A DNA stretch of 64,000 nucleotides from Micavibrio sp. (lineage in GTDB: Bacteria; Pseudomonadota; Alphaproteobacteria; Micavibrionales; Micavibrionaceae), in contig JALTAZ010000010.1 of assembly GCA_027075555.1 (NCBI GenBank), forward strand, positions 2,496 to 66,495, given 5' to 3'. The position numbers were made by a program, and so were the translations under genes. The notes beneath the pieces are model-generated. The model was not told the DNA's origin, searched no databases, and saw only the letters and a program-made list of their open reading frames with translations. This document shows positions 8,347 through 30,300 of this stretch, one piece after another. Position 1 is the stretch's first letter; the number at the start of each line of letters is the position of its first letter.

Positions 8347-8480
8347 AATTATTCAAACCCCAATTTTTATAATTATAGTTATTTTTATATTATTTTGATA
8401 TTTAATACCATCTAGATAGTACCGCTTTTGGTTTGATAAATGCAAGCATTTTTAATGATTTAGTTATATATAATCGGATA

Positions 8481-11863: not shown

Positions 11864-11967
11864 TTTAAATTCCTTTTTTAAAATTGACGCATTTTAACAA
11901 CCATTTACACATTGTCACGCATAAATATGAAAAATTATATCTATATGTTTTTTTGTACAATATTTGT

Positions 11968-12948: not shown

Positions 12949-12979
12949 TGGCCGTTATAAATGCAAATTTCATGCCGTT

Positions 12980-14059
12980 TTATTTATGGTCTGCGCCGAT
13001 AGCTTGGGAAATATTGCTAAACCCATCATGGTCAAGCAAGTCTAATAGCCCTTTATTTATATTATTGGCTATATCAGGTCCTTCATAAATCATTCCTGTA
13101 TAAATTTGAACCAGCGAAGCTCCCGCGCGGATTTTATCATAAGCATGCCTAGCTGTTGATATTCCTCCCACACCGATAATGGGCAATTTACCTCTGGTTA
13201 GTTTGTAAAATCTGCGTATAGTATCTGTGGATTTATCACGTAACGGAGCGCCACTAAGACCGCCTTTTTCTTCGCCAAATTTTTTATTAAGAAAATCAGG
13301 GCGATCAAGTGTGGTATTTGAAAGAATAACTCCGCTCACCCCGTTTTCTATAAGTGTTTTAGCTATTCCTTCTTGTTGTTTTTCATTTAAATCAGGTGCA
13401 AGCTTTACAAGCAGTGGTGTTGGATAATCTCCACCAACCCTTCTTATTGTTTTCATAACTTTAGATAGTAATTCTGATAGGGCATTTTTTTCCTGTAGAT
13501 CGCGTAAACCAGGGGTGTTGGGCGATGAAATATTAATAGTAATGTAATCAGCTTGATCTGAAAGCTCTTTTATTAGTTCAATATAATCTTCTGCTGGGAT
13601 TGTTTGCCCTTTATTCATACCAATATTAACCCCAATGATGCTACCATCAGGGCATGCAGGGTTGCTTTTGGCTTTATCAAGATTAGGCTTAAATACACGA
13701 ACCCCACCATTAGGAAAGCCCATGCGGTTTATTACAGCCTCATTTGAGGGATCACGGAAAATGCGTGGACGTGGATTACCGCCTTGTGGTTTAGGTGTAA
13801 CTGTTCCAACTTCAGTAAACCCGAATCCTAATTTTAGAACAGGAACGATAATTTCGGCGTTTTTATCAAATCCTGCTGCCATACCGACTGGGTTTTCAAA
13901 ATCAAGTCCAAAAACATTTTGCCTTAATGCCGTATCTTCTATAGGTAAGTAGCATGAACGAACCAGACCTGTTTTCATGGTTTTTATAGTTATCCCGTGA
14001 GCAATTTCAGGATCAATTTTAAATATACAAGGGCGTATAAGTTTATATAGGTTATTCAT
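12980..14059 (-). CDS. pyrD: Dihydroorotate dehydrogenase (quinone), class 2
   Basis: GLDFENPVGMAAGFDKN, GFGFTEVGTVTPKPQGGNPRPR, NISSPNTPGLR, IGVGGI motifs. Confidence 0.9.
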   Translation of the reverse strand: MNNLYKLIRPCIFKIDPEIAHGITIKTMKTGLVRSCYLPIEDTALRQNVFGLDFENPVGMAAGFDKNAEIIVPVLKLGFGFTEVGTVTPKPQGGNPRPRIFRDPSNEAVINRMGFPNGGVRVFKPNLDKAKSNPACPDGSIIGVNIGMNKGQTIPAEDYIELIKELSDQADYITINISSPNTPGLRDLQEKNALSELLSKVMKTIRRVGGDYPTPLLVKLAPDLNEKQQEGIAKTLIENGVSGVILSNTTLDRPDFLNKKFGEEKGGLSGAPLRDKSTDTIRRFYKLTRGKLPIIGVGGISTARHAYDKIRAGASLVQIYTGMIYEGPDIANNINKGLLDLLDHDGFSNISQAIGADHK

Positions 14060-14062
14060 GGC

Positions 14063-14647
14063 TCAAGCCTTATCTTTATCGGATTTTACTTTCATATGTT
14101 TAAGCCCGATAATCAGATAAGACAAGCCTGTAATTAAGGTTAATATAGTGGCAAGTAATAGCAGTATAACACCAATCTCATATGCATAAGGGGAGTAACC
14201 GCTTAATATTAAAAATCCTAGTGACAGCATTTGTACAGTGGTTTTCCATTTTGCAAGTATAGTTACGGGCATTTTAATGCCTTTAGGTCCTAAAAATTCA
14301 CGTAATCCCGATACCATAAATTCACGCGCAAATATAAGCATTACCAAAATTACCCAAATACCTGTAATTCGTTCAAAAGCTACTAGCATTATAAGTATTG
14401 TTGATACAAATATCTTATCAGATATAGGATCAAGAAAAGTTCCGAAATTGCTGATTTGGTTTAATTTTCTTGCGATGTAGCCATCAAAATAATCAGTTAT
14501 TGCAGAGATTATAAATATAAAAAAACATAGCCATATAACAACTGATCCATAAGTATCTTCCAAATAGAAAAATAAGACCATAATCGGCAATAATAATATG
14601 CGTGAAATGGTTAGAATATTTGCAATGTTATTTTTAACTAACTCCAT
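14063..14647 (-). CDS. pgsA: CDP-diacylglycerol--glycerol-3-phosphate 3-phosphatidyltransferase
   Basis: CDP-alcohol phosphatidyltransferase motif DYFDGYIARKLNQISNFGTFLDPISDK. 194 aa, multi-pass membrane protein. Confidence 0.85.
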   Translation of the reverse strand: MELVKNNIANILTISRILLLPIMVLFFYLEDTYGSVVIWLCFFIFIISAITDYFDGYIARKLNQISNFGTFLDPISDKIFVSTILIMLVAFERITGIWVILVMLIFAREFMVSGLREFLGPKGIKMPVTILAKWKTTVQMLSLGFLILSGYSPYAYEIGVILLLLATILTLITGLSYLIIGLKHMKVKSDKDKA

Positions 14648-14652
14648 ATTAT

Positions 14653-15621
14653 CTACTCTAATGTAAAAGTTGCAATAAGGGAATGATGATCCGATTCTAT
14701 AGCTTTATCTTTATTGATAGAGCTAAGAATTATGTCATTACTGAATAATATATGATCTATTGGTATTTTTAGAAATGGTAGAGTGGCAAATGATGGCCAG
14801 GTTGTTTCTGGAAATATATTGTAATTTTGATAATTAAGTTTTGATATTTTGAGCATATTTTTAAATGCAGGGCTATAAGGGGTAGAGTTCCAATCCCCCA
14901 TGAAAACTGTATTTGGCAAGTTATCACTGGCAATCCATCTTGCCATGCCATCTAATTCTGCAAAATTTTCTTTATATTTTTGTGTGCCTATAGGCGCTTC
15001 GGTGTGAACACTATAGATATTGATTTTTTCATTATCAAATGGAGAAATAGTAAATCGTAGTCCCTTTGTTTTGCATATATCGCCACATATAGATTTTATT
15101 ATAAGATTCTCGATTGGATATTTGCTATATATAGTAACATAGTTGGGGCGTTCAATATCTTTTGGCATTGTGTAGGGTAATATTTTAAGCAATTCATCAT
15201 CTAGCATTTTCAAATATTTGCCGTGGACTTCTTGCATCATAATTAGATCAATATTATTGTTTTTCACCCATTGTCCAATTTTTTTGTATGAATGGTTTTT
15301 GTAATATTTATTATATTGCGCAATTTTGATTTTATTGCCTGCATTGCTACTTATAGGCGCGGCAAAAGCTAGTGGATTACTCATCGGAGCCCTTATCTGT
15401 GCATAAGAACCCATGGCTACAGCTATTACAATAGCTGATAATAAAGCATCTTGATTTAGTAATATAAGCAATGGAAGCAGGATAATCGCTCCAGCGAAAT
15501 ACTGAATCACAAAATTTGATAATAGAGCAAAAAACCAGTGCCACTTTGCAAATAAAGACAGTGTGTAGACTGCGACCAGTATAAATGCCAAGACTGAAAT
15601 ATAATTTTTTATAAAATCCAT
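14653..15621 (-). CDS. Endonuclease/exonuclease/phosphatase (EEP) family membrane protein
   Basis: N-terminal TM segments followed by an EEP core (IDLIMMQEV ... GDWNSTP ... IDHILFS ... SDHHSL). The track start at 15657 is TTG; the ATG at 15621 (MDFIKNY) is preferred, and it removes the overlap with the upstream remnant. Confidence 0.7.
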   Translation of the reverse strand: MDFIKNYISVLAFILVAVYTLSLFAKWHWFFALLSNFVIQYFAGAIILLPLLILLNQDALLSAIVIAVAMGSYAQIRAPMSNPLAFAAPISSNAGNKIKIAQYNKYYKNHSYKKIGQWVKNNNIDLIMMQEVHGKYLKMLDDELLKILPYTMPKDIERPNYVTIYSKYPIENLIIKSICGDICKTKGLRFTISPFDNEKINIYSVHTEAPIGTQKYKENFAELDGMARWIASDNLPNTVFMGDWNSTPYSPAFKNMLKISKLNYQNYNIFPETTWPSFATLPFLKIPIDHILFSNDIILSSINKDKAIESDHHSLIATFTLE

Positions 15622-16015: not shown

Positions 16016-16720
16016 TTAGCCATTAACCGCCTTTTTTTTATCTTCATGTGGATCACGAAGCACATAGCCACGCCCCCATACGGTTTCAATATAGTTAGAT
16101 CCGTCAGTTGCATCGGCAAGCTTCTTACGGAGCTTGCAAATAAACACGTCGATAATTTTGGCTTCGGGCTCGTCCATACCACCATAAAGGTGGTTAAGGA
16201 ACATTTCCTTGGTAAGGGTTGAGCCTTTGCGCAATGAAAGAAGCTCTAATATACCATATTCTTTACCAGTTAAGTGAAGCGGACGGCCTGCTGCTTCTAT
16301 AGTACGCGAATCAAGATTAACTTTTATATCACCAGTTTCAATAATACTTTGAGAATGACCTTGAGAGCGACGTACAATTGCCTGAATACGTGCGACTAGC
16401 TCACGCTTATCAAATGGCTTGGTCAGGTAATCATCTGCACCAAATCCAAGCCCCTTTAATTTGTCATCAAGAGCGCTAAGTCCTGATAAGATCAAAATAG
16501 GGGTATCAACCTTTGCAGCGCGGAAAGCCTTAAGTACCTCATATCCGTCCATATCTGGAAGCATTAAATCAAGAATTATAATGTCATAATCATATATTTT
16601 TCCTAGATCAAGACCATCTTCCCCAAGATCAGTAGTATCAACTATATACCCTTCTGATTTTAGCATCAATTCAATGCTTTTTGCGGTGGACGCATCGTCC
16701 TCAACTAATAAAACGCGCAT
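16016..16720 (-). CDS. ctrA: Cell-cycle response regulator CtrA (OmpR family)
   Basis: [25 protein letters not shown]...[13 protein letters not shown]...LTKPF receiver domain plus the winged-helix C-terminus ([17 protein letters not shown]...[12 protein letters not shown]...[13 protein letters not shown]). The ATG at 16720 is preceded by GGGAGA; the 26 extra codons in the track ORF are not CtrA-like. Confidence 0.9.
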
Positions 16721-16769
16721 GGATTCTCCCTTTAAAATGCAGTTAGAACAAAAAGTTATACGAAGTGCG

Positions 16770-16826
16770 TTAACCTTTATTAACAAACATATTAACAAAT
16801 ATTAACAAAGTTAACAAATTGTTTAA
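16770..16826. promoter_or_regulatory. Array of five TTAAC motifs plus one TTAA (CtrA-type half-sites) in the ctrA/fliI divergent intergenic region
   Basis: TTAAC at 16770, 16780, 16792, 16802 and 16811, and TTAA at 16823. Start-to-start spacings are 10, 12, 10, 9 and 12 bp. The sequence reads TTAACCTTTATTAACAAACATATTAACAAATATTAACAAAGTTAACAAATTGTTTAA. Confidence 0.45.
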
Positions 16827-16912: not shown

Positions 16913-18241
16913 ATGGAACGTTTAGCATATCAAGTTGCCAACATAATATCATCTATCCCTGAGCATGAGCTTTATGGACGTGTAACAAAAATCCTCGGAC
17001 TTTTGGTTGAAATTGATGGCATATCAGAGGCTTTAACTATTGGCGCTGTTGTTCACTTAAAGCCAAAAAATGGAGAGGATATACCCTGTGAAGTAATAGG
17101 TTTTCGCAGTGGGCAAGCTCTTTTGATGCCTTTTGGATCATTAGATGGTGTTGGTCTTGGTTGTGTTGCCGTAGTGCAAGATAGTGCACCTAGTATAACT
17201 CCTAGTGATAAATGGCTAGGGCGGGTAATAAATTCTTTGGCAGAGCCAATAGATGGTAAAGGAGCGTTACAGCAAGGTACAATTCCAGTATTGCTTAAAA
17301 ATAAAGCTCCATCTCCTCATGCAAGGCAAAGAGTAGGACATCAACTGGATTTAGGAGTGCGCGCAGTTAATACATTTCTTGCCACATGTCAGGGGCAGAG
17401 AATGGGTATATTTTCTGGATCTGGAGTTGGTAAATCTGTTCTTCTTTCTATGATGGCGCGTTATACTGCTGCTGATGTTTCTATCATAGGGCTAGTAGGA
17501 GAGCGCGGGCGAGAAGTTCAGGAATTTTTGCAAGATGATCTTGGTGAGGAAGGTTTGGCGCGCTCTGTTGTTGTTGTAGCAACAGGTGATGAGCCAGCGT
17601 TGATGCGTAGGCAGGCTGCTTATGTAACTATGGCTCTGGCTGAGTATTTTAGAAATCAGGGTAAGCAGGTTTTATGTTTGATTGATTCACTTACCCGTTT
17701 TGCAATGGCGCAGCGCGAAATTGGTCTTAGCGCAGGCGAGCCGCCAACATCTAAAGGGTATCCGCCAACCACCTTTGGAGAGCTTGCAAGATTGCTTGAA
17801 CGCGCAGGTCCAGGAGAGAAGGATCAGGGGTCAATCACTGGCTTATTCTCAGTTTTAGTTGAAGGTGATGATCATAACGAGCCTATATCCGATGCAGTGC
17901 GCGGCATTGTTGATGGTCATATTGTTATGGAGCGAGAAATTGCAGATCGTGGGCGTTTTCCTGCTATAAATGTGCTTAAATCTGTATCGCGTTCACTTCC
18001 CGGAGCCATAACGCCAGAGCAAAATGAAATTCTTCGCCATGCAAAGAAGATTATTACTACTTATGAGGATATGGCCGAGCTTATACGCCTTGGTGCATAT
18101 CGTAGGGGTAGTGATCCATTAGTTGATGAGGCAATATTGATATATCCTAAGGTAGAAGAATTTCTACGTCAGAATAAAGAGGAATGCACTGGCATTGAAG
18201 ATGGGTTTAAAAAACTTGCTGATATTCTTAGAATTGGATAA
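16913..18241 (+). CDS. fliI: Flagellum-specific ATPase FliI
   Basis: Walker A GIFSGSGVGKSVLL and Walker B VLCLIDSLTRFA, with F1-beta-like architecture. 442 aa. Confidence 0.9.
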   Translation: MERLAYQVANIISSIPEHELYGRVTKILGLLVEIDGISEALTIGAVVHLKPKNGEDIPCEVIGFRSGQALLMPFGSLDGVGLGCVAVVQDSAPSITPSDKWLGRVINSLAEPIDGKGALQQGTIPVLLKNKAPSPHARQRVGHQLDLGVRAVNTFLATCQGQRMGIFSGSGVGKSVLLSMMARYTAADVSIIGLVGERGREVQEFLQDDLGEEGLARSVVVVATGDEPALMRRQAAYVTMALAEYFRNQGKQVLCLIDSLTRFAMAQREIGLSAGEPPTSKGYPPTTFGELARLLERAGPGEKDQGSITGLFSVLVEGDDHNEPISDAVRGIVDGHIVMEREIADRGRFPAINVLKSVSRSLPGAITPEQNEILRHAKKIITTYEDMAELIRLGAYRRGSDPLVDEAILIYPKVEEFLRQNKEECTGIEDGFKKLADILRIG

Positions 18242-18248
18242 GTGATAC

Positions 18249-18668
18249 ATGGCAGAGCTTGACCCTTTGATTCGTATGCGTAAATATGAGATAGAGCAAA
18301 GGCAAAAAGCTCTAGCTGAGTTATATAAACGGGCGCAGGATTTAAGATATGAGCGAGATTCCCTAGAATCGCAGCTAGCAATTGAAGCGGAAAAAACACG
18401 GGAAATGGACGCAGATTTTTTAAGCTATTTCGGGGCGTATTCAAACAAGATGCAAAAAGAAATAGAAGCCATAGATCGCAAGCGCTCTAAGCTAGAAAAT
18501 CAGATTAAAATGGCTCAAGATCACGTGCGCGATGCCTTTGCAGAGCTTAAGAAAGTTGAAATTATCAATGATCGCCGCAGGGAAGAAGAGCTATCTGTCC
18601 TTGATAAAAAAGAAGCTGATGAACTTGATGAAATTGCGATTGATAGATTTAGACGTAAAGGCGAGTAG
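18249..18668 (+). CDS. fliJ: Flagellar export protein FliJ
   Basis: 139-aa charged coiled-coil protein immediately downstream of fliI, which is the conserved fliI-fliJ position. Confidence 0.65.
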   Translation: MAELDPLIRMRKYEIEQRQKALAELYKRAQDLRYERDSLESQLAIEAEKTREMDADFLSYFGAYSNKMQKEIEAIDRKRSKLENQIKMAQDHVRDAFAELKKVEIINDRRREEELSVLDKKEADELDEIAIDRFRRKGE

Positions 18669-18674
18669 TAGCTA

Positions 18675-20378
18675 TCAAACATTTTCTCTATACTTCTTAA
18701 CTTCATCAGGGGTGATACAAACCCAGCTATCCAGATGATCTTGGAATGATAATTCCCCAGATGTTTTTGTTTCTGATAATGCTTTACTATAGGTTTGGCG
18801 AATTTCTTGTTTCATAGATTCGCTAAAGCTTTGCTCTGTACGTAAGATCAGATCAAGCCTCCCGATATTTTCTGATATTCTGGCAAACGTACCATCAAGC
18901 TGTATTTTGCCCATTTGGCTTAAGTATAAATCCATTATAAAGCGAACTTTTTTACCCACACCTTGTGGGTTAGAGCTATGATCATTATTTTCTTTGCAGT
19001 AATACAACACTATTTTATATATTTCATTTTGCCAAGCAAGAGGTAGAGAAAGGGCTTTCCAGTCTCCTGAAATACTATCAGAATTCAAACGCGCCAATCC
19101 TAACATTTCTTGACCTAAGCGACCTAAAATATCAGATTTTCCCGCGCGTTTAAGAGCGTTAACTACCTTATCGCCAAGCCAGCCTTGAATATCACCAGAA
19201 CGCATAGCAGCAATGAAAAATAAAATAGTTGCACCCATTTGCAAAGGAGCAGCAGAATTAGGAATCACATTATTAAATATTAGCGCAGCTTGTGGGTTTG
19301 TTTGAGTTAATGCTTGTTCTATCTCTTGAAATATTGACCAAGATTGCGGCGTTAGGTAATAAGACGGAGTTAATGGGGGCGGTAGCGCGGATTGTGGTTC
19401 TGACTTAATAATATTTATAGATAGTTTTGAGCCAACAGGAATATCTTCTATTGGCACTTGGAGAGCGTAATTTTGCCCTGCTAGACTATCAGGAGCCAAA
19501 ATGCGCAAAACTGCAAAATTTTTATTTTGTGTAAAACCCTGTAAAACCGCGCTGGTTTCCCCTATTTTTGTACTAAGAAGGGTGAACTCTTTTGGTGTGT
19601 TTGGATAAATAGATAGATTGGGCAAGGTGATCTTCTCTATGTTTATGGTCGATATTCTAATGGGGCTTGGCTGATTTTTATTTGTTATTGGCTCTTGCAA
19701 TGGTGATGATATTATTTGCGATGCTATCTCACGAAATGGAATATCAATTTGTTTTCCAAACTGGCTTAAACTTTGTTTTTTTTTATCTGTCGGTGGGCTA
19801 AGCATGGTGTTTACCGGCATAGCAAAATTATCAATCTTTGATGGTAAGTTTAAGTTAACATCTCCTAACTCACTTACTAATATATTTGGTTGCCATATCT
19901 GTGATATTTGCCCTTGGATTTGTTCTAAGAAGGGCTGAGTTATTTCTAGTGGAGTATTAAGTTTAGTTAAATTTAGCTCTGCCCCATTTATTATTTCATT
20001 AAGTGTTAGAGTTTTAGGTATGCTAAATTGTGGTAACAATGTTTGAGTTCGTAGCGACTCAGCTTCTTTGGCTATTGGTTGTAATATAGCTTGTAGTGGC
20101 GGATTTCCAGCATCAATACGTATCTCTATTGGCGCGCCATTTTCAAGGCGAATGGTTGTTTGATTGGTTCTTATAATAATTTGTCCCTGACTGGTTCTGA
20201 TTGTTATATTGCCGTTATTTTCTACATTTATAATTTTCCCGCGTAAGTTTTGGGGGCTTTCTAATGATTTTAGGTTTTGCGGAAGAGTTACTATCTCAAA
20301 TTTTGAACTGGCAGATGAACGAGCGTTTGCTACTATTGTCTGAGTTAATAATGATGTGATAGAGGTTGGATCACTCAT
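18675..20378 (-). CDS. Putative flagellar hook-length control protein (FliK-like)
   Basis: 567 aa, Q/P/S/T/N-rich and low-complexity. The C-terminal block VRFIMDLYLSQMGKIQLDGTFARISENIGRLDLILRTEQSFSESMKQEIRQTYSKALSETKTSGELSFQ resembles the Flg_hook (FliK C-terminal) pattern. It lies directly downstream of flhF-flhG. Confidence 0.45.
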   Translation of the reverse strand: MSDPTSITSLLTQTIVANARSSASSKFEIVTLPQNLKSLESPQNLRGKIINVENNGNITIRTSQGQIIIRTNQTTIRLENGAPIEIRIDAGNPPLQAILQPIAKEAESLRTQTLLPQFSIPKTLTLNEIINGAELNLTKLNTPLEITQPFLEQIQGQISQIWQPNILVSELGDVNLNLPSKIDNFAMPVNTMLSPPTDKKKQSLSQFGKQIDIPFREIASQIISSPLQEPITNKNQPSPIRISTINIEKITLPNLSIYPNTPKEFTLLSTKIGETSAVLQGFTQNKNFAVLRILAPDSLAGQNYALQVPIEDIPVGSKLSINIIKSEPQSALPPPLTPSYYLTPQSWSIFQEIEQALTQTNPQAALIFNNVIPNSAAPLQMGATILFFIAAMRSGDIQGWLGDKVVNALKRAGKSDILGRLGQEMLGLARLNSDSISGDWKALSLPLAWQNEIYKIVLYYCKENNDHSSNPQGVGKKVRFIMDLYLSQMGKIQLDGTFARISENIGRLDLILRTEQSFSESMKQEIRQTYSKALSETKTSGELSFQDHLDSWVCITPDEVKKYRENV

Positions 20379-20452: not shown

Positions 20453-21286
20453 CTACCCTTGTGCAATTCTTCTTTGTGCATTTTCAACATTTTTCCATAC
20501 ATAGCGCGCAATTTTTTCAACATCTTCAGCAGCATCTGCATTTGGGGATCGTATTAAAATCGGAGTTTGTGATCGTATTGTTTCTTTTACCTTTGAATCT
20601 ACGCGAATTAGTCCTGCCATATTAGGTGATAGGCGCAAGAAATTTTCGCAGGCTTTCAAAAGGGTTTTATATGTCTTTTGCCCTTCGGTTACGCTGGATG
20701 CCATATTAACAACAATGCTTATATTTTTTGACATTCCCGCCGCGTTACCAAGCTTTATGAAAGCATAAGCATCTGTGAGTGATGTTGGTTCATCAGTGGT
20801 AATTAGCAAAGTATTTGTTGCTGTAGCAGATAGCATACGCACAGTTCTATCAACGCCAGCTCCAAGATCGGCTATAACTACATCATATTCAGAGGATAAA
20901 TCCAGTAATTGATCTCGAAGAAGACTCAATCTTTGGCTAGGTAAGGCAGATAGCGAAGCTTGACCAGAACGCCCAGCCACAATATCAAAACCGCCATCTT
21001 CATACTCTTGTACTACGCGATCTAATCCCAAGCGCCCGCGAATAACATCATTAAGGTCACGTTTTGGCATAAGACCAAGTTGAACATCAACATTAGCCAG
21101 CCCTAAATCACCATCAAAAAGTAAAACTCGTTTTCCCATTTTTGTTAGAGCATGGGCGAGAGTAATTGAAAACCAAGTCTTGCCAACACCGCCCTTGCCG
21201 CTGGCTACGGCAATAATATTTGCAGATCTTCCAAAAGTAGGATTTGCAGTTGATGGTGCTTTGTTGGTTACTGGCTTTCCTGTCAT
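20453..21286 (-). CDS. flhG: MinD/ParA-family flagellar number regulator FlhG (FleN/MotR)
   Basis: Deviant Walker A IAVASGKGGVGKTWFSITLA. The start overlaps the flhF stop by 1 nt (TAATG), which is the canonical flhF-flhG pairing. Confidence 0.85.
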   Translation of the reverse strand: MTGKPVTNKAPSTANPTFGRSANIIAVASGKGGVGKTWFSITLAHALTKMGKRVLLFDGDLGLANVDVQLGLMPKRDLNDVIRGRLGLDRVVQEYEDGGFDIVAGRSGQASLSALPSQRLSLLRDQLLDLSSEYDVVIADLGAGVDRTVRMLSATATNTLLITTDEPTSLTDAYAFIKLGNAAGMSKNISIVVNMASSVTEGQKTYKTLLKACENFLRLSPNMAGLIRVDSKVKETIRSQTPILIRSPNADAAEDVEKIARYVWKNVENAQRRIAQG

Positions 21287-22332
21287 TATCTGGTTCCTGT
21301 TCTTTTGGCAGCTTGTGATTGCAGGCCTTGTTTGCTTACTATATCATTTTTTGAAGATTTATATAGCCGTGGCATTAGTAATTGTGCAAGAGCACTTGGA
21401 GAAAGAGGAATAAGACCTCTTGCAACTTTTGGAGTTGTGCTCACATCTGTAAAGCTAAGATCGCCTTGATGCGCGGCTGATAGCAAACTTCCCAAGCGAC
21501 GTGCAATGTCAACGCGCGTTGGTAATATTTCACTAACCCCAATAGTGGCAAAAACACGCGCCATCTCTCCAGCTTCATCTGCATCAGTTCCAGCGGGCAG
21601 AACCATTACTGGACGAATATCTGTGGCATTTATAAGGCGTGCTAATATTTTTACTTCATTTTTATCAAAAGGATTTAATCCAGATGTATCAATGACCACC
21701 TGATCATGGTCTTTCATTAAATCATCTGCGATATTACCAAGTGATCTATAATCAACGGCCTTTTTAAGTTTTATATTAAGCAGATCGGTAAAGGCTTTTA
21801 ACTGTTCTATACCTCCAGCGCGCACTGTATCAGTAGAAATCACGCCAATGTTAAGGCCATTCATCGCCCCTCTAGCAGCTAGTTTTGCCACAGCTAGTGT
21901 TTTACCGGCTCCTGGAGGACCAACCATCATAATAGGTTTATTAAAGGTTCTTACAGGTAAAGGGCGATAGGAGAATAATTGCTCTAATGTACTAATAAGA
22001 GCAATTTTAATATTATCAAACCCCATAACGGTTGCACAAGAAATCATATTATCCATGACGTCTTCAGGAACGCAATGGCGCAACATTATATCGGTTAGCT
22101 CCTCAGTAATAGCATTGGAATCAAGCTCATCATCATATTGTAGCCAGCTATCACCGCTTGCTATTCCTTCATCACCAATTTCAAACGCAGGCTCTATCGC
22201 CGCTGTAACACGAACATTACCTTTCGCGCGATCTTCACCTGTCGCAACAATAATGGCTTCTTCGCCAAGAGTTTCGCGTATCATTTGCATCGCTTCTGTC
22301 ATTGTACTGGCATGAAATGTCTTTAGCCGCAT
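21286..22332 (-). CDS. flhF: Flagellar biosynthesis SRP-type GTPase FlhF
   Basis: MRLKTFHASTMTEAMQMIRETLGEEAIIV N-terminus, GPPGAGKTLAVAKLA, DTSG. The track start at 22353 is TTG; the ATG at 22332 matches the usual FlhF N-terminus. Confidence 0.85.
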   Translation of the reverse strand: MRLKTFHASTMTEAMQMIRETLGEEAIIVATGEDRAKGNVRVTAAIEPAFEIGDEGIASGDSWLQYDDELDSNAITEELTDIMLRHCVPEDVMDNMISCATVMGFDNIKIALISTLEQLFSYRPLPVRTFNKPIMMVGPPGAGKTLAVAKLAARGAMNGLNIGVISTDTVRAGGIEQLKAFTDLLNIKLKKAVDYRSLGNIADDLMKDHDQVVIDTSGLNPFDKNEVKILARLINATDIRPVMVLPAGTDADEAGEMARVFATIGVSEILPTRVDIARRLGSLLSAAHQGDLSFTDVSTTPKVARGLIPLSPSALAQLLMPRLYKSSKNDIVSKQGLQSQAAKRTGTR

Positions 22333-22454
22333 GGGAAAGTTTACCCGAATCAAACTAATTATATGGTTTCCATTAATTATATACTAGAGCATAAGCATAA
22401 AAAAATGCTACAGTCTTTTGAAATTTGTATAAATAATATTTTTAGGAGAATATA

Positions 22455-23075
22455 TTGTCTTATAATAACTTGTTTTTGAAACCTTATACACGGTTTTTGG
22501 TGATTGGGCTATCTGCTATTTCTTTGGGATATAACATGTCAGCTAAAGCTGGTGATGAAATAGAGCAAGTTGTAGAAATAAAAGATTTACCAAGTGGTAA
22601 GGGTCAGACTATTGAAAAATTAACACAAGATCTTATTAAGGATTTTTATAAGAAAGCAGAGTTAGCTTCATTAGAAGGTGGTAAGACTATATTGAAATTT
22701 TTGGATAAACATACCGCCGAAGACGCAAAAACCAAACTTCATATGCGAACTGTTATGCCTAACAAGCCGCCAGAAAAAAGCGTAGTTATATCTGATAAAA
22801 CTACTATGCTTGCAGATACAAAATCAGCATATGAAAGGGGTAGCGTTGATAACATGAAAACTGAGGTTATATCAGTTAATATTTCAGATGATGGTAAATC
22901 TGCATCAGTAGTAGAAAGAACTGTTTCTGATTATTCGTTAACATTACCAGAAGATCAGAAAGTAAAAATAAGAAGCGATCAGAGCTGCGATACTTCTATC
23001 ATACTAAATGATGGTATTATTCAAAGCGGTAATTCTGAATGTGACGTTGAGGTTAATATTGAGCCGGTGAAATAG
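22455..23075 (+). CDS. Secreted hypothetical protein, paralog 1 of 3
   Basis: TTG start, 6 nt after AGGAG. Signal-like segment ...LSAISLGYNMSAKA/G. Shares conserved blocks and a C-x17-C pair with the next two ORFs. Confidence 0.6.
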   Translation: MSYNNLFLKPYTRFLVIGLSAISLGYNMSAKAGDEIEQVVEIKDLPSGKGQTIEKLTQDLIKDFYKKAELASLEGGKTILKFLDKHTAEDAKTKLHMRTVMPNKPPEKSVVISDKTTMLADTKSAYERGSVDNMKTEVISVNISDDGKSASVVERTVSDYSLTLPEDQKVKIRSDQSCDTSIILNDGIIQSGNSECDVEVNIEPVK

Positions 23076-23654
23076 ATGATGAAGTGTTTTACTATTAAGT
23101 TTAATTTATTGTTGTTAATGGTATTTATTGCCGCAGGTAGCACACATTTTTTGTATTTAAAATCGGCTATGGCTGGTTTTGATATTTTAACAGATAATAA
23201 AATTAAATCTTTCTACGATGATTATATTTCTATTCAAACGGGTAATCCAGATAAGGCTATATCATTTTTGAAAGAGCATCTTAGCGATGATTTCAACATG
23301 TCTGTTAATGTCATAAGTAAAATTGAAGGTTCTCCACAACAAGAGCAAATAGTGAATTTTAATAAGGAAAAGATGTTAGAGGAAACTAAAAGGGGTATGG
23401 AGGTTATTAAAACAAGTTCTGTAGATTATAAGATAAAATCTATTGATATAAGCGACGATGGCAAGGTCGCAAAGGTTATAGATAGTCGATCCCTTGATAT
23501 TGAGCTATCTATAGGAAGTTATGGTATGCCTACAAAGTTTATAGGTAATCGTTTTATGATTTGTAATACAACTTTATATTTAAATAGTAATGGTAGCATC
23601 ATGATTAAGGATAGCACTTGCAATTCCAAAGATAACATAAGATCCGCAGAATAA
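23076..23654 (+). CDS. Secreted hypothetical protein, paralog 2 of 3
   Basis: The ATG directly abuts the stop of paralog 1. Signal-like LLLLMVFIAAGSTHFLYLKSAMA/G. Conserved IKSFY, ISDDGKVAKV and C-x18-C. Confidence 0.6.
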   Translation: MMKCFTIKFNLLLLMVFIAAGSTHFLYLKSAMAGFDILTDNKIKSFYDDYISIQTGNPDKAISFLKEHLSDDFNMSVNVISKIEGSPQQEQIVNFNKEKMLEETKRGMEVIKTSSVDYKIKSIDISDDGKVAKVIDSRSLDIELSIGSYGMPTKFIGNRFMICNTTLYLNSNGSIMIKDSTCNSKDNIRSAE

Positions 23655-23684
23655 TTATTATTATACACACAGAGTTTAATTTCC

Positions 23685-24224
23685 ATGTACAATTTTAAAT
23701 TTATTATTTACTTGATTTTATTAACATTTTCCCTGTTCCCCATATATGCTTATTCAAGTGATAAGGTCTTAAATGAGAAAACTATTAAGAATTTTTATAA
23801 AGACCTTGTTGAGGCTAAGATTTCTGGGGGAGAGTATTTAATTTATTTTCATGGAAAGCATTATAGCGATGATTTGAAAATGATATTGAATCTAAGAAGG
23901 AAAGTTGGTGGTGATGAAATGTCTAGGGTTTTTCTAGATCATGATAAGGAAAGCTTTATGGAGGCCATAAAGGAAAACTCTAAAATTTTAGATCATAAAA
24001 ATGGAAGATATGATATTGTAAGCATTTCGATGAATGAAAACGATAACAGTGCGGAAGTTCATGTTAGGTTAGTTAGTCAGTTTATTGTTCAAACTGATAG
24101 GCTTGCTCCTAGAAAGTCAGCAATTGAAGCAATGGATTGTAAGGATATAATAACATTGTCTAATTATGGTGTTATACAAATTAAATCTTCGCAATGTGAT
24201 GTAAATGTTTCCATGGATAAATAG
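23685..24224 (+). CDS. Secreted hypothetical protein, paralog 3 of 3
   Basis: Signal-like IIYLILLTFSLFPIYAYS/S. Conserved IKNFY, HYSDD and C-x18-C. Confidence 0.6.
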   Translation: MYNFKFIIYLILLTFSLFPIYAYSSDKVLNEKTIKNFYKDLVEAKISGGEYLIYFHGKHYSDDLKMILNLRRKVGGDEMSRVFLDHDKESFMEAIKENSKILDHKNGRYDIVSISMNENDNSAEVHVRLVSQFIVQTDRLAPRKSAIEAMDCKDIITLSNYGVIQIKSSQCDVNVSMDK

Positions 24225-24254
24225 GAAAAAAATCAAAAGTTAATAATAAAAAAA

Positions 24255-26375
24255 TTAAATTTGTCCCATAGTTTTTATTTTTGCTTTGGGGTGGATTTCA
24301 TTTTGAGACATTACGACAGTTTGAGGGCGGAATCTCTCAATAACAGAGCGAACATAAGGGCGTATCATTGGTGATGTTAATAAAACAGGTGTAATTCCTT
24401 GGGCAGCTAGCGAATCATATTGTTCACGTACAGCAGTTATAAAATCCTGTAATTTAGTTGGAGGCATGGCAAGTTGTTTATCCTCACCATCTCCAACTAG
24501 AGCGTCCATAAAGGCTTGCTCCCATTCAGGCGACAGTGTTAATAATATTAAAACGCCTGATTGGTCAGTATTTGCATCGCAAATTTGCCTAGCTAGCCTA
24601 GACCTAACATGTTCAGTGATTTTTGCTATACTCTTAGTGTAGGCAGATGCCTCTGATATTCCTTCTAATATAGTGGCTAAATCTCTAACAGAAACACGTT
24701 CAGCCAAAAGATTTTGTAATATACGTTGTAAACCGCCAACAGTTATTTGTGCAGGTATAACATCGGCAACAAGCTTTTGGTATTCTTGAGGCAACTCATT
24801 AAGGAGCTTTTGTGTTTCTGCATAATTAAGCAGGTCAGGCATATTATCTTTAATTATTTCGGTAATATGAGTTGTAATAACAGTTGGTGCATCAACAACT
24901 GTATATCCTTTAAAATGTGCTTCTTCACGGTATTGTTCTTGTATCCACATAGCGGGCAGACCAAAGGTTGGTTCAACGGTGTTTTCACCGGGCAATGATA
25001 TAGTTGCGCCATTAGGATCCATGCACATAAGCATATTAGGACGCACCTCACCACGACCTGCTTCAATCTCTTTTATGCTTACGACATATGCATTTGCGGC
25101 AAGTTGTAGATTATCTTGTATCCTAACTGCGGGTAGAACATATCCCATATCTTCTGCTAGTTGACGGCGTAGCCCCTTAATTTGATCAGTTAGTTTATTC
25201 CCGCCATCTCCTTGAACCAGAGGGAGTAGTCCATATCCCAGCTCTAGGCGAATTATATCCATGGCTAATGCATTTGATATTGGCTCTTCTGCGATTGGTG
25301 CTCCTGCTCCTTTTTCTCCTGAAACTTGAGCGTCTTTCGCGGTTAGTTTTTCTTCCTTTCTTTCGTTGTTTTTTTGATAGGCAAAATATGACAAGCTGCC
25401 AGTTATTGCGGAAATAATAGCAAAGGGTATAAATGGCATCGCAGGGACAAGGCCAAGTATAAGCATTAGGACAGAGCTCATGGCCAATGCATTAGGGTAG
25501 CGGCTTACTTGTATGAATAACTCTTGTTCGGCAGAGCCCTCAACCCCAGCTTTGGAAACTAAAAGACCCGCAGATACAGAAACAACAAGTGCAGGAATTT
25601 GACTTACAAGACCGTCTCCAATTGTAAGTATTGTATAATTGGCTGCGGCCTCGGCTAGGGTCATATCTTGCATGACTGTACCAATTACAATACCGCCAAT
25701 GATATTAACAAAAACAATCAAAAGCCCAGCTATGGCATCGCCACGAACAAATTTGGCTGCACCGTCCATGGCTCCGTAGAAAGTGCTTTCAGATTCTAGT
25801 TTTTTACGTTTTTCTCTAGCCTCATCTTCGGTAATCATGCCCGCGGATAAGTCGCTATCAATTGCCATTTGTTTTCCTGGCATAGCATCTAAGGTAAAGC
25901 GGGCAGCTACTTCCGCAATACGACCTGAACCTTTTGTGATAACGATAAAGTTGATAATTACAAGAATTGAAAAAACAATAGCCCCTATGACATAGTTGTT
26001 CCCAATAATAAATGTTCCAAAGGCTTCGATAATTCCCCCTGCAGCATCGCGACCTGTGTGACCGTCTTCTAAAATAAGACGTGTAGATGCTATATTTAGC
26101 CCCAATCTCATAGATGTTGCGACTAGCAATACGGTTGGGAATGTTGAAAATTCCAACGGAGTTTGGATAAATAATACGGTCATTAAAATTATTATTGAAA
26201 AAGTAATTGATATTGCTAGGCCTGCATCAAGCATGAATGGGGGCATGGGAACTAGCATAAATAAGATGATTGCAATAATGCCAAAAGCAAAAATTATGTC
26301 ACTACGGAAAAATGCTCCTAAGCTAGGAAGAGAATCCGAGGAGCTACTTTTTGTCTGTAATGCATTATCGGTCAT
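24255..26375 (-). CDS. flhA: Flagellar type III export gate protein FlhA
   Basis: 706 aa. FHIPEP blocks (VFSILVIINFIVITKGSGRIAEVAARFTLDAMPGKQMAIDSDL, FYGAMDGAAKFVRGDAIAG) and a cytoplasmic C-domain. Confidence 0.95.
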   Translation of the reverse strand: MTDNALQTKSSSSDSLPSLGAFFRSDIIFAFGIIAIILFMLVPMPPFMLDAGLAISITFSIIILMTVLFIQTPLEFSTFPTVLLVATSMRLGLNIASTRLILEDGHTGRDAAGGIIEAFGTFIIGNNYVIGAIVFSILVIINFIVITKGSGRIAEVAARFTLDAMPGKQMAIDSDLSAGMITEDEAREKRKKLESESTFYGAMDGAAKFVRGDAIAGLLIVFVNIIGGIVIGTVMQDMTLAEAAANYTILTIGDGLVSQIPALVVSVSAGLLVSKAGVEGSAEQELFIQVSRYPNALAMSSVLMLILGLVPAMPFIPFAIISAITGSLSYFAYQKNNERKEEKLTAKDAQVSGEKGAGAPIAEEPISNALAMDIIRLELGYGLLPLVQGDGGNKLTDQIKGLRRQLAEDMGYVLPAVRIQDNLQLAANAYVVSIKEIEAGRGEVRPNMLMCMDPNGATISLPGENTVEPTFGLPAMWIQEQYREEAHFKGYTVVDAPTVITTHITEIIKDNMPDLLNYAETQKLLNELPQEYQKLVADVIPAQITVGGLQRILQNLLAERVSVRDLATILEGISEASAYTKSIAKITEHVRSRLARQICDANTDQSGVLILLTLSPEWEQAFMDALVGDGEDKQLAMPPTKLQDFITAVREQYDSLAAQGITPVLLTSPMIRPYVRSVIERFRPQTVVMSQNEIHPKAKIKTMGQI

Positions 26376-26591: not shown

Positions 26592-27239
26592 TTATCCTAG
26601 ATCGTTATTGTCACCAATAAATATAGGAGCTTCAGGAACTTCTGTATAGGCTTGCGTTTTTGCCATATCAGGGCGCTGAAGATCAATTTCCTTGCCAGAG
26701 TGATCAACCAATACAACATTATGTTCTTTTACTGTATCGGCATTTGGCGCATATGAAAGACCTCCATCTTGAGCCGCTTTTTGAATAGCTTCTTGTCTTT
26801 TATCATCAGGCGTTGAAATAAAAATCAATAGCGCATCTTTTTGGCTAGAGCTAAGATTATCATAAGCATCAACATCGGCGCCTAGTTCTTTTTTCAAGGC
26901 TTTTTCATGCTGTTTTTTTTCTGCTGAGCTTACATCTTTAAGGTATCCACCTTTAACTAGCTTTTGTGAAAAATCAGCGATAATAGCAACAGTTTCATCA
27001 TTAGTTACAACACCATCTTTTTCTTTTGCGTCACTAATATTCATGCCAAACTGTTTTTCAAACATAGGCCCTTGATTAGGATCATTAAGCATAGCTGTTA
27101 TCTCAGCAAGCTCACTGCCGTAATTACCATAATTGTCTTTTCTTTGATTTTGTTTTGTTCCAGTATCTATAAGACTTTCAGCGCCTTTTGCAAAATCTTT
27201 CATAGTCGGAATCTTGTCTGTAAAGCTATCCCAGCCCAT
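26592..27239 (-). CDS. Hypothetical protein (no recognised domain)
   Basis: 215-aa K/D/E-rich ORF with no signal peptide or TM segment, co-directional between flbD and flhA. Confidence 0.45.
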   Translation of the reverse strand: MGWDSFTDKIPTMKDFAKGAESLIDTGTKQNQRKDNYGNYGSELAEITAMLNDPNQGPMFEKQFGMNISDAKEKDGVVTNDETVAIIADFSQKLVKGGYLKDVSSAEKKQHEKALKKELGADVDAYDNLSSSQKDALLIFISTPDDKRQEAIQKAAQDGGLSYAPNADTVKEHNVVLVDHSGKEIDLQRPDMAKTQAYTEVPEAPIFIGDNNDLG

Positions 27240-27311: not shown

Positions 27312-28685
27312 TCAACTTTGCCCTGCGGCAGGAATGTTTATACCATCATTTTTATACTGGTTTAATTTGTTACGCAAAGTTCGAATAGATATTCCTAATA
27401 TATTAGCTGCGTGTGTACGATTTCCTAAGCATTGATCCAATGTGTTTAGAATCATCTCTCTTTCTACATCTGAAATTTTTCTTCCAATAAAAGACTCAAC
27501 GCCACTTGTATTTTGTATATTCGTATCTTGTTTTTCCCCACTAGTTCTATTTTGAGAATTTGTCAAAGGAGAAGGGGCGCTAATTTCATCGCCTTGAATA
27601 AATATAGCACCAGCTTCTATCTCATTTTCATTAGACATCAATATTGCGCGATGCATTGTGTTTTCAAGTTCACGAATATTACCACGCCATTTGCATGATT
27701 TAAGTTTTTCTTGCGCTTCTTTTGATATTGATTTGCGTTCTAAATCATTAGATTCAGAGAATTTATCAGCAAAAAATTGTGCTAATCTAACTATGTCAGA
27801 GGGGCGTTCTCGCAACGGGGGGAGGGGTATGTTAACCACGTTAAGTCGGAAATATAAATCCTCACGAAAATCCCCTTTTTTAACAGATTCTTGTAAATTT
27901 CTGTTAGATGTGGCTAGAATGCGAACATCTACTTTAATGGTGTTATTACCACCTATACGGGTTATTTCTTTTTCTTGTATTGCCCGTAATAGCTTGGCTT
28001 GCAGTAGTGGGTGCATTTCACTAACCTCATCAAGGAGTATAGTTCCACCACTAGCTTCTTCAAATTTTCCAATTCTTCGTCCTGTAGCACCCGTAAACGC
28101 CCCTTTTTCATGTCCAAATAATTCAGATTCCAACAAGTTTTCAGGAATAGCTGCGCAGTTAACAGCAATAAATGCCCCATCTTTACGTTTTGATTTGTTG
28201 TGAATATAACGTGACATAACCTCCTTGCCTGTACCTGATTCACCAGTTATCATAATAGTGGCATCAGATGGAGCAACTTTATTAGCCAAGGTTATGATAG
28301 GCTTCATTGCAGGATCATCAGCAATCATAGAGTTATTTTCTTCTGTAACAGCTTCTAAAACAGCAGCTATTAATTCTGCATCGGGGGGCAATGGTATATA
28401 TTCTTTTGCTCCTTGTTGAATTGCTTTTACAGCTGATCTCGCATCGGTACTAACCCCACAAGCAATTACAGGAAGATGTATACGTTCTGTTTTTAGGCGT
28501 TCGATAAATTCACTAATTTTTTGTTTGACATCAATCATAACAAGATCAGCGCTCTTACCATTTAGTAACGCGCCAAATGCTTGATCCGTATCTTCACAAT
28601 GAATAACCTTAGCTCCGCGCTGTAAGGCTATTTTTCCAGCTTCAGAGATATGCCCATTTAGGCTACCAATAATCATTAAACGCAT
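27312..28685 (-). CDS. flbD: Sigma-54-dependent flagellar transcriptional activator FlbD
   Basis: Atypical receiver MRLMIIGSLNGHISEAGKIALQRGAKV...ADLVMIDV, as in Caulobacter FlbD. AAA+ core with GESGTGKE, GAFTGA and ESELFGHEKGAFTG, and a C-terminal Fis-type HTH. The ATG at 28685 sits 9 nt after AGGAG; the track start at 28706 is TTG. Confidence 0.85.
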   Translation of the reverse strand: MRLMIIGSLNGHISEAGKIALQRGAKVIHCEDTDQAFGALLNGKSADLVMIDVKQKISEFIERLKTERIHLPVIACGVSTDARSAVKAIQQGAKEYIPLPPDAELIAAVLEAVTEENNSMIADDPAMKPIITLANKVAPSDATIMITGESGTGKEVMSRYIHNKSKRKDGAFIAVNCAAIPENLLESELFGHEKGAFTGATGRRIGKFEEASGGTILLDEVSEMHPLLQAKLLRAIQEKEITRIGGNNTIKVDVRILATSNRNLQESVKKGDFREDLYFRLNVVNIPLPPLRERPSDIVRLAQFFADKFSESNDLERKSISKEAQEKLKSCKWRGNIRELENTMHRAILMSNENEIEAGAIFIQGDEISAPSPLTNSQNRTSGEKQDTNIQNTSGVESFIGRKISDVEREMILNTLDQCLGNRTHAANILGISIRTLRNKLNQYKNDGINIPAAGQS

Positions 28686-28768
28686 GTTATTTTGCTCCTG
28701 CTGCAAAAGAGTAGAAAAATCTATAATATTTACTATAGAACAACTTTTTCAAGCTATAATATTATCTT

Positions 28769-29452
28769 ATGACACAACTAGATTATATACCAGAGGGGTA
28801 TGAGCAAATAAAGGTGGTTGATAATCTGTTTTCGTTTTTCAAGACAGATTTTGAGCCTAAAGCCAATATTGTTCTTTATCCAAGAAGGTTAACAGGTAAT
28901 TTTGATAGGTTAGCTGTTGAAATGGCAAATTTTTTTGATTTAAAGGAAGGGAAGCTTTTTATCAAATATAGTGAATGCAGCAAGATTCAATATTTTCAAA
29001 AGCAAGTAAAGGATAAAGATATATACAAAGCCGTAGATATAATATTATCTGATATGGAGTGCTTGTACTTTGCACGGGTTAAAACTCATATGCGTTTGGT
29101 TGTTAATGAGTATAAAAAGCATCATGATGTTCATGAGTTTCATGTTGATGGTCTAAATCAGGATTTTGATCGCTTTATTGTCTGCTATAATGATCCAGTA
29201 ACGCAATTTGTGCGTAATGATGATGTAATTATGGTTTCTGGTAATAATGTAAAGGTCAAGGATAATGCCCCTACATATCAGTTTGCATCAGGTGATATGT
29301 GGAAGGCGCGTGTGCGTAACAAACAACGAAACAGTGCCGATGATTTTCTTGGTAAAATTTTACGAGATAAAGAACGCCGCGCTTTTGTGCACAGGGCTTT
29401 GCGTTCTAATCTACCAAGAATTTTGGTTGTAGGTGATAAAAGATTAAATTAG
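28769..29452 (+). CDS. Hypothetical protein with a possible HxD...H metal triad
   Basis: 227-aa ORF on the opposite strand to the flanking flagellar genes. EFHVDG and FVHRA give a candidate 2-His-1-carboxylate arrangement. I have a vague recollection of DUF1826-like proteins, but this is not verifiable here. Confidence 0.4.
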   Translation: MTQLDYIPEGYEQIKVVDNLFSFFKTDFEPKANIVLYPRRLTGNFDRLAVEMANFFDLKEGKLFIKYSECSKIQYFQKQVKDKDIYKAVDIILSDMECLYFARVKTHMRLVVNEYKKHHDVHEFHVDGLNQDFDRFIVCYNDPVTQFVRNDDVIMVSGNNVKVKDNAPTYQFASGDMWKARVRNKQRNSADDFLGKILRDKERRAFVHRALRSNLPRILVVGDKRLN

Positions 29453-29466
29453 CAATTATTCAATTG

Positions 29467-30300
29467 CTATTTGAAATAACTTATTCGCTTTGATGGTGGT
29501 AGTAAACTATTTATCATCATTTCTAAATTACGCGGATTTTCATGCCTAAGCATTGATTGAACTGTTTTTAGGGTCATCATTTTAGCCATAACATCATCAT
29601 CGGCATTTTTTTCAATTTTTGCAGCCAACGGAGCCATGACAATAGTTCCTAATATCGCGCCATAAAATGTTGTAAGAAGGGCTATTGCCATTGACGGACC
29701 AATAGCATCTGGGTTATCAAGATCTGCAAGCATTTGCACAAGTCCGATTAGTGTTCCAATTAAACCCATGGCAGGGGCAATTTCAGACCCTTTGCGCAAG
29801 ATGCTTGCGGCTCTTTTATGATTTTCTTCTTCCTTGTCAATTTGAAGCCGCAAAATACGCTTCAAGTCTTCTTCACTATATCCATCAACGACAAGACGTA
29901 TGGCGTAGTCTAAAAAAGGTTCATTTTTGGTTTGTTTTTCGTAATTAGACAGAGCCAATAATCCTTTTTTACGCGCTATTATAGCAAGATCAATCATGCT
30001 TTTTGCGAGAGAAGGGAAATTTCTAACTGGTCTAACTACTACTGTAGAAATAATTTTAATTGCCCCTTTTAATTCTTCTCCATTAAACGATATGCATGTA
30101 GCCGTAATTGTTCCAAGCAGAACAATTAGAAGTGATGGTATATTTATGAATTTTGCTTCACTAGGGTTATAAAAAATAGCCCCAACAATCATGCCAAAAG
30201 TAAAAACTAGCCCTAAAATAGTTGCAAGATCAGGCATAGTGGTGATGCTTGGTACATTAACAGCAGGTAATTTTATATCTTCTTGTTCGGACTCTGCCAT
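29467..30300 (-). CDS. motA: Flagellar stator A subunit (MotA/PomA family)
   Basis: From M22, MPDLATILGLVFTFGMIVGAI... resembles PomA/MotA N-termini. The MotA/TolQ/ExbB channel block is APAMGLIGTLIGLVQML. The start is uncertain (30300 or 30237). Confidence 0.75.
   Translation of the reverse strand: MAESEQEDIKLPAVNVPSITTMPDLATILGLVFTFGMIVGAIFYNPSEAKFINIPSLLIVLLGTITATCISFNGEELKGAIKIISTVVVRPVRNFPSLAKSMIDLAIIARKKGLLALSNYEKQTKNEPFLDYAIRLVVDGYSEEDLKRILRLQIDKEEENHKRAASILRKGSEIAPAMGLIGTLIGLVQMLADLDNPDAIGPSMAIALLTTFYGAILGTIVMAPLAAKIEKNADDDVMAKMMTLKTVQSMLRHENPRNLEMMINSLLPPSKRISYFK

Follow-up and report, generated by a model that had tools for sequence, protein, structure and literature searches.

In a 64,000-nt stretch of DNA from Micavibrio sp. 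(contig JALTAZ010000010.1), referred to here as the window, three tandem genes situated between flhF and flhA were found to encode predicted exported proteins of an undescribed and unannotated family within a known fold superfamily, that of the NTF2-like proteins. A gene of this family accompanied flhF across divergent lineages, and the three products, named here paralogs 1, 2 and 3, are tentatively read as accessories of the polar flagellum that act in the periplasm and are co-inherited with flhF, a reading which we consider possible and not quite probable. A first-pass annotation, made from the sequence alone, had described three head-to-tail open reading frames (ORFs) on the + strand between flhF and flhA, and the ORF listing confirmed this arrangement (lengths and coordinates in Table 1). 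Profile matches likewise placed flhG, flhF, flhA and flbD all on the - strand.

Pairwise BLASTP comparison indicated that the three ORFs are true paralogs, beyond chance (E = 4e-12, 3e-14 and 9e-13; 27, 26 and 23% identity in alignments of some 150 residues), in agreement with the homology, the shared blocks and the identity of a quarter to a third that had been judged by eye. In the alignment of the three paralogs, the motifs IK.FY, F..KH..D and IS.DG.SA.V and both cysteines were invariant or near-invariant columns. The C-terminal cysteine pair was spaced by 17, 18 and 18 residues in paralogs 1, 2 and 3, respectively, as first read, and by 17 or 18 residues in 174 of 177 family members. When conservation was scored by position over 180 members, only C126, C145, A97 (96%) and K62 (93%) were above 90%, the two cysteines being invariant, followed by the DG turn, Y12 (79%), H33 (75%) and Q139 (74%); K62, Y12, H33 and Q139 are numbered by mature paralog 3.

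An exhaustive HMMER profile search of 1.84 billion representatives recovered at least 283 clusters (at 50% identity) with E<=1e-3, 128 of them with E<=1e-10. Nearly all of the members were 170–210 amino acids long and shared a signature made up of the leader, LTE..I..FY, KH, I..DG.SA.VKD and C-x17/18-C; every named member was annotated as "hypothetical protein". A word-indexed protein search, which at first reached close relatives only, was lossy (8, 11 and 19 matches, against the 283 of HMMER) and was not used for estimating family size. The earlier failure to recognise a family proved well founded: no above-threshold Pfam match was obtained for the three paralogs or for 37 diverse members, none of the NTF2 clan models (SnoaL, SnoaL_2-4, DUF4440, VirB8) matched these same proteins at E<=1, the three paralogs were unmatched in NCBIfam, and no PDB chain matched the family profile at E<0.3. 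The literature searched contained neither a description of the family nor an NTF2-like flagellar protein. DUF7356 (E 0.059) and Glyoxalase_2 (E 0.0022) were discarded as candidates, both being sub-threshold and not common to other members.

Two further observations were made within the family. The sole multidomain member was P0117, a secreted-looking protein of 660 amino acids with Asp/Gly-rich calcium-binding-like repeats and no Pfam match, in which the family domain forms the C-terminal end (residues 491–634). Additionally, a paralog-1-like and a paralog-3-like protein, MGN7438093.1 and MGN7438095.1 (clusters of P0012 and P0015), were encoded two locus tags apart and probably belong to another triplet; their metagenome-assembled genome (MAG) is labelled Alcanivorax sp., possibly through a mistake in binning or naming.

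The fold of the proteins was predicted with AlphaFold2. The mature part of paralog 3 was modelled with a predicted local distance difference test score (pLDDT) of 94.6 and a predicted template modelling score (pTM) of 0.88 from an alignment of eight sequences; two helices are followed by a pair of long strands, then by a third helix, and the fold ends in four antiparallel strands, also long. Paralog 1 reached a pLDDT of 89.9, and the topology of the two models was H-H-E-H-E-E-E-E; its mature residues 1–18 were below 50 and are therefore taken as a disordered acidic tether. NTF2-like was defined here as an alpha+beta cone in which N-terminal helices pack into a strongly curved antiparallel beta-sheet. 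In a Foldseek search of the PDB, the best match of paralog 3 was 3rob (E 2.3e-7, probability 1.0, target TM-score 0.80); at E<=1e-3 there were 164 matches for paralog 3 and 127 for paralog 1, and all among the matches listed were NTF2-like. They included KSI-like and SnoaL-like proteins, LinA, PhzA/B, dioxygenase beta subunits and designed steroid binders. What had been offered as a guess, an NTF2/SnoaL-like fold, was thus substantiated by two confident models and their structural matches, and each protein is predicted to consist of a single NTF2-like (SnoaL/KSI-like) cone domain of about 150 residues. Both cysteines fell on the last two adjacent strands of the model, the last beta-hairpin, which they would lock through a disulfide, and K62 stood where helix 3 begins. 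The conserved polar residues would suit a binding pocket but include no obvious catalytic set.

Each paralog carried a hydrophobic N-terminal segment and an AXA-like site, the candidate cleavage sites being AKA/G in paralog 1, within IAAGS or at AMA/G in paralog 2, and YA/YS in paralog 3. Leaders were called by a simple heuristic (a hydrophobic h-region plus an AXA-like site), which was passed by the three paralogs, in line with the Sec-type leaders assigned to them at first, and by 172 of 180 family members. A lipobox was absent in all three paralogs. The TTG start of paralog 1 was supported, since this start and the leader were kept at the N-terminus of its orthologs. The three proteins are predicted to be exported via a Sec-type leader and to be soluble or tethered in the periplasm.

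To place the genes in related genomes, the flagellar proteins of the window were mapped by tblastn onto each locus of the relatives (Table 1). The family gene was the first gene divergent from flhF in all nine lineages inspected (FlhF identity 92% to 53%), namely the window, L001, L003/L004, L009-L011, L006-L008/L015/L016, L019, L014, L017/L018/L023 and L024. Five of the flhF-linked loci had been located by a family motif and not by flagellar genes. Taking neighbourhood across divergent lineages as an operational test of a flagellar gene, this core subfamily was found in flagellar company throughout: the other conserved cluster genes of recognisable function were all flagellar or regulatory (CtrA, FliI, FliJ, FlhG, FlhF, FlhA, FlbD, MotA/PomA-like, FliN, FliH-like, FliG and FliF). 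A scan of genome contigs with paralog-3 motifs returned no relative, and a metagenome scan returned one locus only. All of the flhF-linked loci bore Micavibrio-like labels or belonged to unclassified Alphaproteobacteria. The NCBI taxonomy places Micavibrio under Pseudobdellovibrionaceae, and the differently labelled MAGs therefore represent one Micavibrio-like alphaproteobacterial group.

Unrelated genes had entered the gap between flhF and flhA on the flhA side only, and none was found between the family gene and flhF. In the high-GC relatives L018 (10618-12384) and L017 (5908-7674), a 588-amino-acid CPA2/Kef-like cation antiporter lay between the family gene and flhA, followed in the same gap of L017 by a small toxin-antitoxin-like pair (7713-8418). 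In L014, flhA was reduced to its last 36 codons (10541-10648), next to an iron-type ATP-binding cassette (ABC) transporter (10865-14689); flhA had been lost or moved from this site and the family gene was still with flhF. In L001 alone, an ORF of 257 amino acids (11759-12532), hydrophobic at its N-terminus and unmatched in Pfam, separated paralog 3 from flhA. The linkage is with flhF and not with the flhA-flhF junction.

Orthologs of each paralog were found in related contigs. In a neighbour-joining tree of the members with known context, the paralogs formed three monophyletic clades (bootstrap 100, 75 and 100 for paralogs 1, 2 and 3), each containing one gene per triplet genome; therefore, the triplication predates the split of the marine lineages and has been stably kept, as the first-pass annotation had proposed in calling it old. 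The paralog 3 clade was the most divergent of the three, and the single-copy flhF-linked genes fell nearer to clades 1 and 2. The single copy is ancestral and the triplication is an old one, kept in one marine sublineage that includes the window. Stable retention of the triplet suits subfunctionalised or co-assembling subunits better than transient duplicates.

The ratio of nonsynonymous to synonymous substitution (dN/dS) was 0.13–0.19 for paralog 1, 0.17–0.26 for paralog 2 and 0.13–0.26 for the triplet genes overall, compared with 0.03–0.08 for FlhA and FlhF; the unsaturated pair L003/L004 gave 0.17 and 0.20. By these estimates the three are real genes under purifying selection, which is several-fold more relaxed than in the core genes. 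Paralog 2 was the fastest-evolving, with 51% identity to its orthologs where FlhA had 92%.

An unrelated insertion was the alternative raised at first. A recent horizontal one, splitting flhA from flhF by chance, would agree with the opposite strand and with a total GC content of 0.30–0.34 in the three genes versus about 0.41 in the flanks. Nevertheless, the GC content at third codon positions (GC3) was 0.24–0.28 in the three genes and 0.28–0.29 in flhF and flhA, so the low total GC is an amino-acid composition effect, and in genomes of 37% to 60% GC the family genes followed the content of their hosts. These two grounds exclude that foreign DNA was inserted recently. Moreover, orthologs occupied the same site in all of the relatives, the gene tree agreed with the order of FlhF divergence, and neither mobile-element genes nor repeats came to light. 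This explanation is effectively refuted, and we accord it almost no likelihood.

The intergenic region between flhF and the family gene was about 125 bp long and its architecture was fixed across the aligned loci. It contained a block, TATACTAGAGCATAAGCATAAAAAAATGCTACAGTCTTTTGAA..., which was near-identical in eight lineages (the window, L001, L003, L009, L014, L016, L019 and L024) whose family proteins were only 25–80% identical. This block was unique within the window and was located 47–50 nt from the flhF ATG in eight of eight lineages; it is probably the promoter or operator of flhF in the Micavibrio-like clade. A structured RNA was considered and found no support, as the block had no Rfam match and the RNAalifold consensus was only -1.6 kcal/mol. 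The segment AGCCGCAT (MRLKTFHA) was conserved at the flhF start in all loci, and for this reason the true start of flhF is likely the ATG at 22332 and not the TTG at 22353. A window-wide search for sigma-54 sites allowing 3 mismatches gave nothing better than shuffled sequences, and an AGCAT-N7-ATGCT palindrome was not enriched, the actual site spacing being N6. L001 alone carried the half-site TTAACCAT.

According to the flagellar reading, the proteins would reside on the periplasmic side of the flagellated pole and serve the polar flagellum as accessories. They would most likely be adaptors or scaffold subunits that bind a partner in the pocket of the cone or on the face of the sheet, possibly peptidoglycan or a sugar, or else a protein of the basal body or stator. 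The three paralogs, having diverged, would probably form one heteromeric set, and their expression would probably be coupled to that of flhF-flhG via the common intergenic region. A more specific proposal, that the set builds a ring or collar around the polar motor, heteromeric and situated in the periplasm, derived from a homomeric single-copy ancestor and coupled to FlhF/FlhG via the divergent promoter, is unlikely. To our knowledge, the NTF2-like fold has so far been found in no flagellar structure.

Several observations weigh against a flagellar role. The loci were ascertained via the family, so that flhF-bearing relatives without a family gene would escape; furthermore, the whole cluster is strongly syntenic, and part of the linkage may be simple inheritance. 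The remote members of the family (22–28% identity; L012/L013, L020/L021 and L022), which have a long Pro/Ala-rich tether, were found in purE-purK-X-fumC or nadA-nadC-X arrangements with no flagellar genes nearby. Regular-expression searches of the intergenic regions for TGG-N10-GC[AT] (sigma-54-type), TTAA-N7-TTAA (CtrA) and sigma-28 sites gave nothing consistent. The conserved block was 75–79 nt from the start codon of the family gene in most lineages and 143 nt in L024, where its distance from flhF held, and it may be only the flhF promoter. The triplet genes evolved faster than the core flagellar ones by a factor of 4–6. Lastly, M. aeruginosavorus ARL-13 has the same cluster order in GMV_756-GMV_759, with a hypothetical ORF of 918 nt, GMV_758, between an FlhF-type GTPase and FlhA; this ORF, whose homology to the family is not verified, was very weakly expressed, with an expression index of 0.5 in the attack phase and 0.1 in attachment versus 7.7 and 4.9 for FlhF (PMC3189940).

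The flagellar accessory module suggested by the first-pass annotation is upheld in part. Co-localisation holds for the core subfamily, through its synteny with flhF, and does not extend to the remote members with their purEK/fumC and nadAC contexts; a flagellar promoter consensus upstream is also missing. Of the triplet as an element embedded in flhA-flhF-flhG, the link to flhF stood, and the ancestral state is the single copy and not the triplet.

The main alternative is that the family consists of periplasmic NTF2-like binders or enzymes with no flagellar role, an ancestor having acquired the gene beside flhF by chance and low rearrangement of the cluster having held it in place, the triplication reflecting a diversification of ligand specificity. 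Enzymes and binders make up most of the NTF2-like superfamily, the Foldseek matches included such proteins, and K62, Y12, H33 and Q139 could line a pocket. The metabolic neighbourhoods of the remote homologs, the missing flagellar promoter motif and the fast evolution of the triplet genes also speak for it. Nevertheless, in none of the nine lineages had the family gene been moved away from flhF, despite indels elsewhere in the gap, and the rigid conservation of the divergent region argues against a non-flagellar binder. No invariant catalytic constellation was found, only the two cysteines, A97 and K62 being conserved above 90%, and no curated enzyme family was matched. We regard this explanation as a real one to be kept in mind, although a doubtful one.

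Alternatively, the genes could encode fast-evolving secreted predation proteins that act in prey contact, in binding of the prey envelope or in self-protection from the envelope-degrading enzymes of the predator itself, and were duplicated and diverged in an arms race. The restriction of the flhF-linked loci to Micavibrio-like or unclassified Alphaproteobacteria would suit this idea, as would the export, duplication and comparatively fast evolution of the proteins and the fusion of the family domain to the C-terminus of the secreted-looking P0117; many attack-phase genes of M. aeruginosavorus are also hypothetical (PMC3189940). Nevertheless, the dN/dS values were far below 1, with no sign of gene-level positive selection, the strict linkage to flhF would be unexpected for genes of prey interaction, and the predatory habit of the window organism was deduced from MAG labels only. 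A role in predation is accordingly judged improbable.

The features of the locus and the arrangement in the relatives are collected in Table 1. The Shine-Dalgarno sequence AGGAG at 22444-22448 lay 6 nt upstream of the TTG start of paralog 1 and the TAG stop of this gene directly abutted the ATG of paralog 2, as had been noted; all three ORFs were in one common reading frame. On the - strand, no ORF of at least 60 amino acids was found across the triplet interval, and the 64-kb window contained no copy of the family beyond the three paralogs. A scan for sigma-70 promoters and terminators gave the same result as shuffled sequences. Paralog 3 and flhA converge, and the 30-nt spacer between their stops (24225-24254) contained no terminator-like hairpin; read-through from either side would give antisense transcription into the opposite gene.

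Table 1. Features of the triplet locus in the window and arrangement of the family genes at flhF in related loci.
Feature or locus	Positions	Strand	FlhF identity to window	Description
Paralog 1	22455-23075	+		206 amino acids, TTG start; predicted leader (residues 1-32), ~18-residue tether, NTF2-like domain, Cys178 and Cys196
Paralog 2	23076-23654	+		192 amino acids, ATG start; predicted leader and NTF2-like domain
Paralog 3	23685-24224	+		179 amino acids, ATG start; predicted leader and NTF2-like domain
flhG-type MinD/ParA ATPase	20453-21286	-		Profile match
flhF, signal recognition particle (SRP)-type GTPase	21286-22332	-		TIGR03499, E 4.7e-37; listed ORF reaches 22353
flhA	24255-26375	-		TIGR01398, 890 bits; convergent with paralog 3
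FlbD	27312-28706	-		Profile match
Divergent flhF/paralog 1 control region	22333-22454			Alignment of nine loci
Conserved non-coding block TATACTAGAGCATAAGCATAAAAAAATGCTACAGTCTTTTGAAATTTGTATA	22380-22431			Near-identical in eight lineages
L001, L003/L004			92%	Triplet at flhF
L009-L011 (including a 354-kb TARA Oceans scaffold)			83%	Triplet at flhF
L006-L008, L015, L016 (including a 2.41-Mb "uncultured Micavibrio sp." chromosome)			80-81%	Triplet at flhF
L019			70%	Single copy, directly between flhF and flhA
L014			67%	Single copy at flhF
L017, L018, L023			60%	Single copy at flhF
L024			53%	Single copy at flhF

Elsewhere in the cluster, three conserved ORFs without a family match, at 18675-20378 (567 amino acids), 26592-27239 (215 amino acids) and 28769-29452 (227 amino acids), are candidates for lineage-specific flagellar genes; the first of them is in a FliK-like position and fast-evolving (35–75% identity). 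In several relatives, a conserved ORF of 235 amino acids without a Pfam match was present between fliI and fliJ (L001 4263-4970, L003 4586-5293, L006 4935-5642 and L009 4990-5697), the two genes being directly adjacent in the window (18241-18249) and in L014. The stator A subunit at 29467-30300 matched the PomA and MotP models best (208 and 191 bits), followed by MotA, all of them sub-cut-off, a hint that the polar motor of this marine organism is sodium-driven. On one side, the flagellar cluster was bordered by CtrA (16016-16798; 410 bits, cut-off 350), and the cell-cycle regulator TrcR (35287-35982) was located just past the other side; these flanks fit an alphaproteobacterial cell-cycle control of the cluster.

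Motility drives prey finding in predatory Micavibrio-like bacteria. If the linkage to flhF is functional, the family would represent an unrecognised class of lineage-specific periplasmic flagellar proteins in predatory bacteria, and the NTF2-like fold would join the folds used around the motor. The more modest gain is the definition of an unannotated exported family, with its many clusters, a clear signature, a confidently modelled fold and a testable genomic association. M. aeruginosavorus is culturable, and the function would be experimentally accessible there if GMV_758 proves to be a family member.

Compared with proteins of known structure, the closest likeness was to 3rob (Planctomyces limnophilus), 3fsd, 3fka and 2r4i, NTF2-like proteins of unknown function with the same alpha+beta cone (Foldseek probability 1.0, E 2e-7 to 1e-4, target TM-score up to 0.80). 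Identity to these proteins was 10–16%, and the family differs from them in being larger (about 150 residues, with long strands), exported and equipped with C-x17/18-C. With regard to genomic setting, the triplet resembles the periplasmic motor proteins of Vibrio (MotX/MotY of the T-ring, FlgT/FlgO/FlgP of the H-ring) and Campylobacter (PflA/PflB/FlgP), which are also Sec-exported, lineage-specific and encoded with flagellar genes. Motor phenotypes and in situ densities have been demonstrated for the Vibrio and Campylobacter proteins; there is no sequence relation between these and the triplet, and the folds differ. No Pfam or NCBIfam match to FlgT, MotX, MotY, FlgO, FlgP, PflA, PflB, FlhE or FlgA was found in the triplet.

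Periplasmic NTF2-like modules have also been described in the LD-carboxypeptidase Pgp2 of C. jejuni, in which the NTF2 pocket binds peptidoglycan, and in Csd6 of H. pylori, whose NTF2 domain was proposed to bind pseudaminic acid and which is linked to flagellin biosynthesis (PMC8038945). In those two proteins the domain is fused to a catalytic one, whereas the triplet proteins are standalone, with no YkuD/LD-carboxypeptidase match; Pgp2 and Csd6 were absent from the best 50 structural matches. VirB8 of the type IV secretion system, with a periplasmic NTF2-like domain behind an N-terminal hydrophobic segment, provides an analogy in topology for the leader and tether of paralog 1. VirB8 is an oligomerising assembly factor; the triplet had no VirB8 Pfam match and no type IV secretion genes nearby, and VirB8 was absent from the top structural matches. 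Finally, CaMKII association-domain-like proteins (3ksp, 3h51) and the LDB1/2 self-association domains were among the structural matches, with 9–12% identity. In these proteins the fold builds homo-oligomeric hubs, and the likeness, which is one at the level of the fold only, offers a precedent for reading the three paralogs as a heteromeric assembly.

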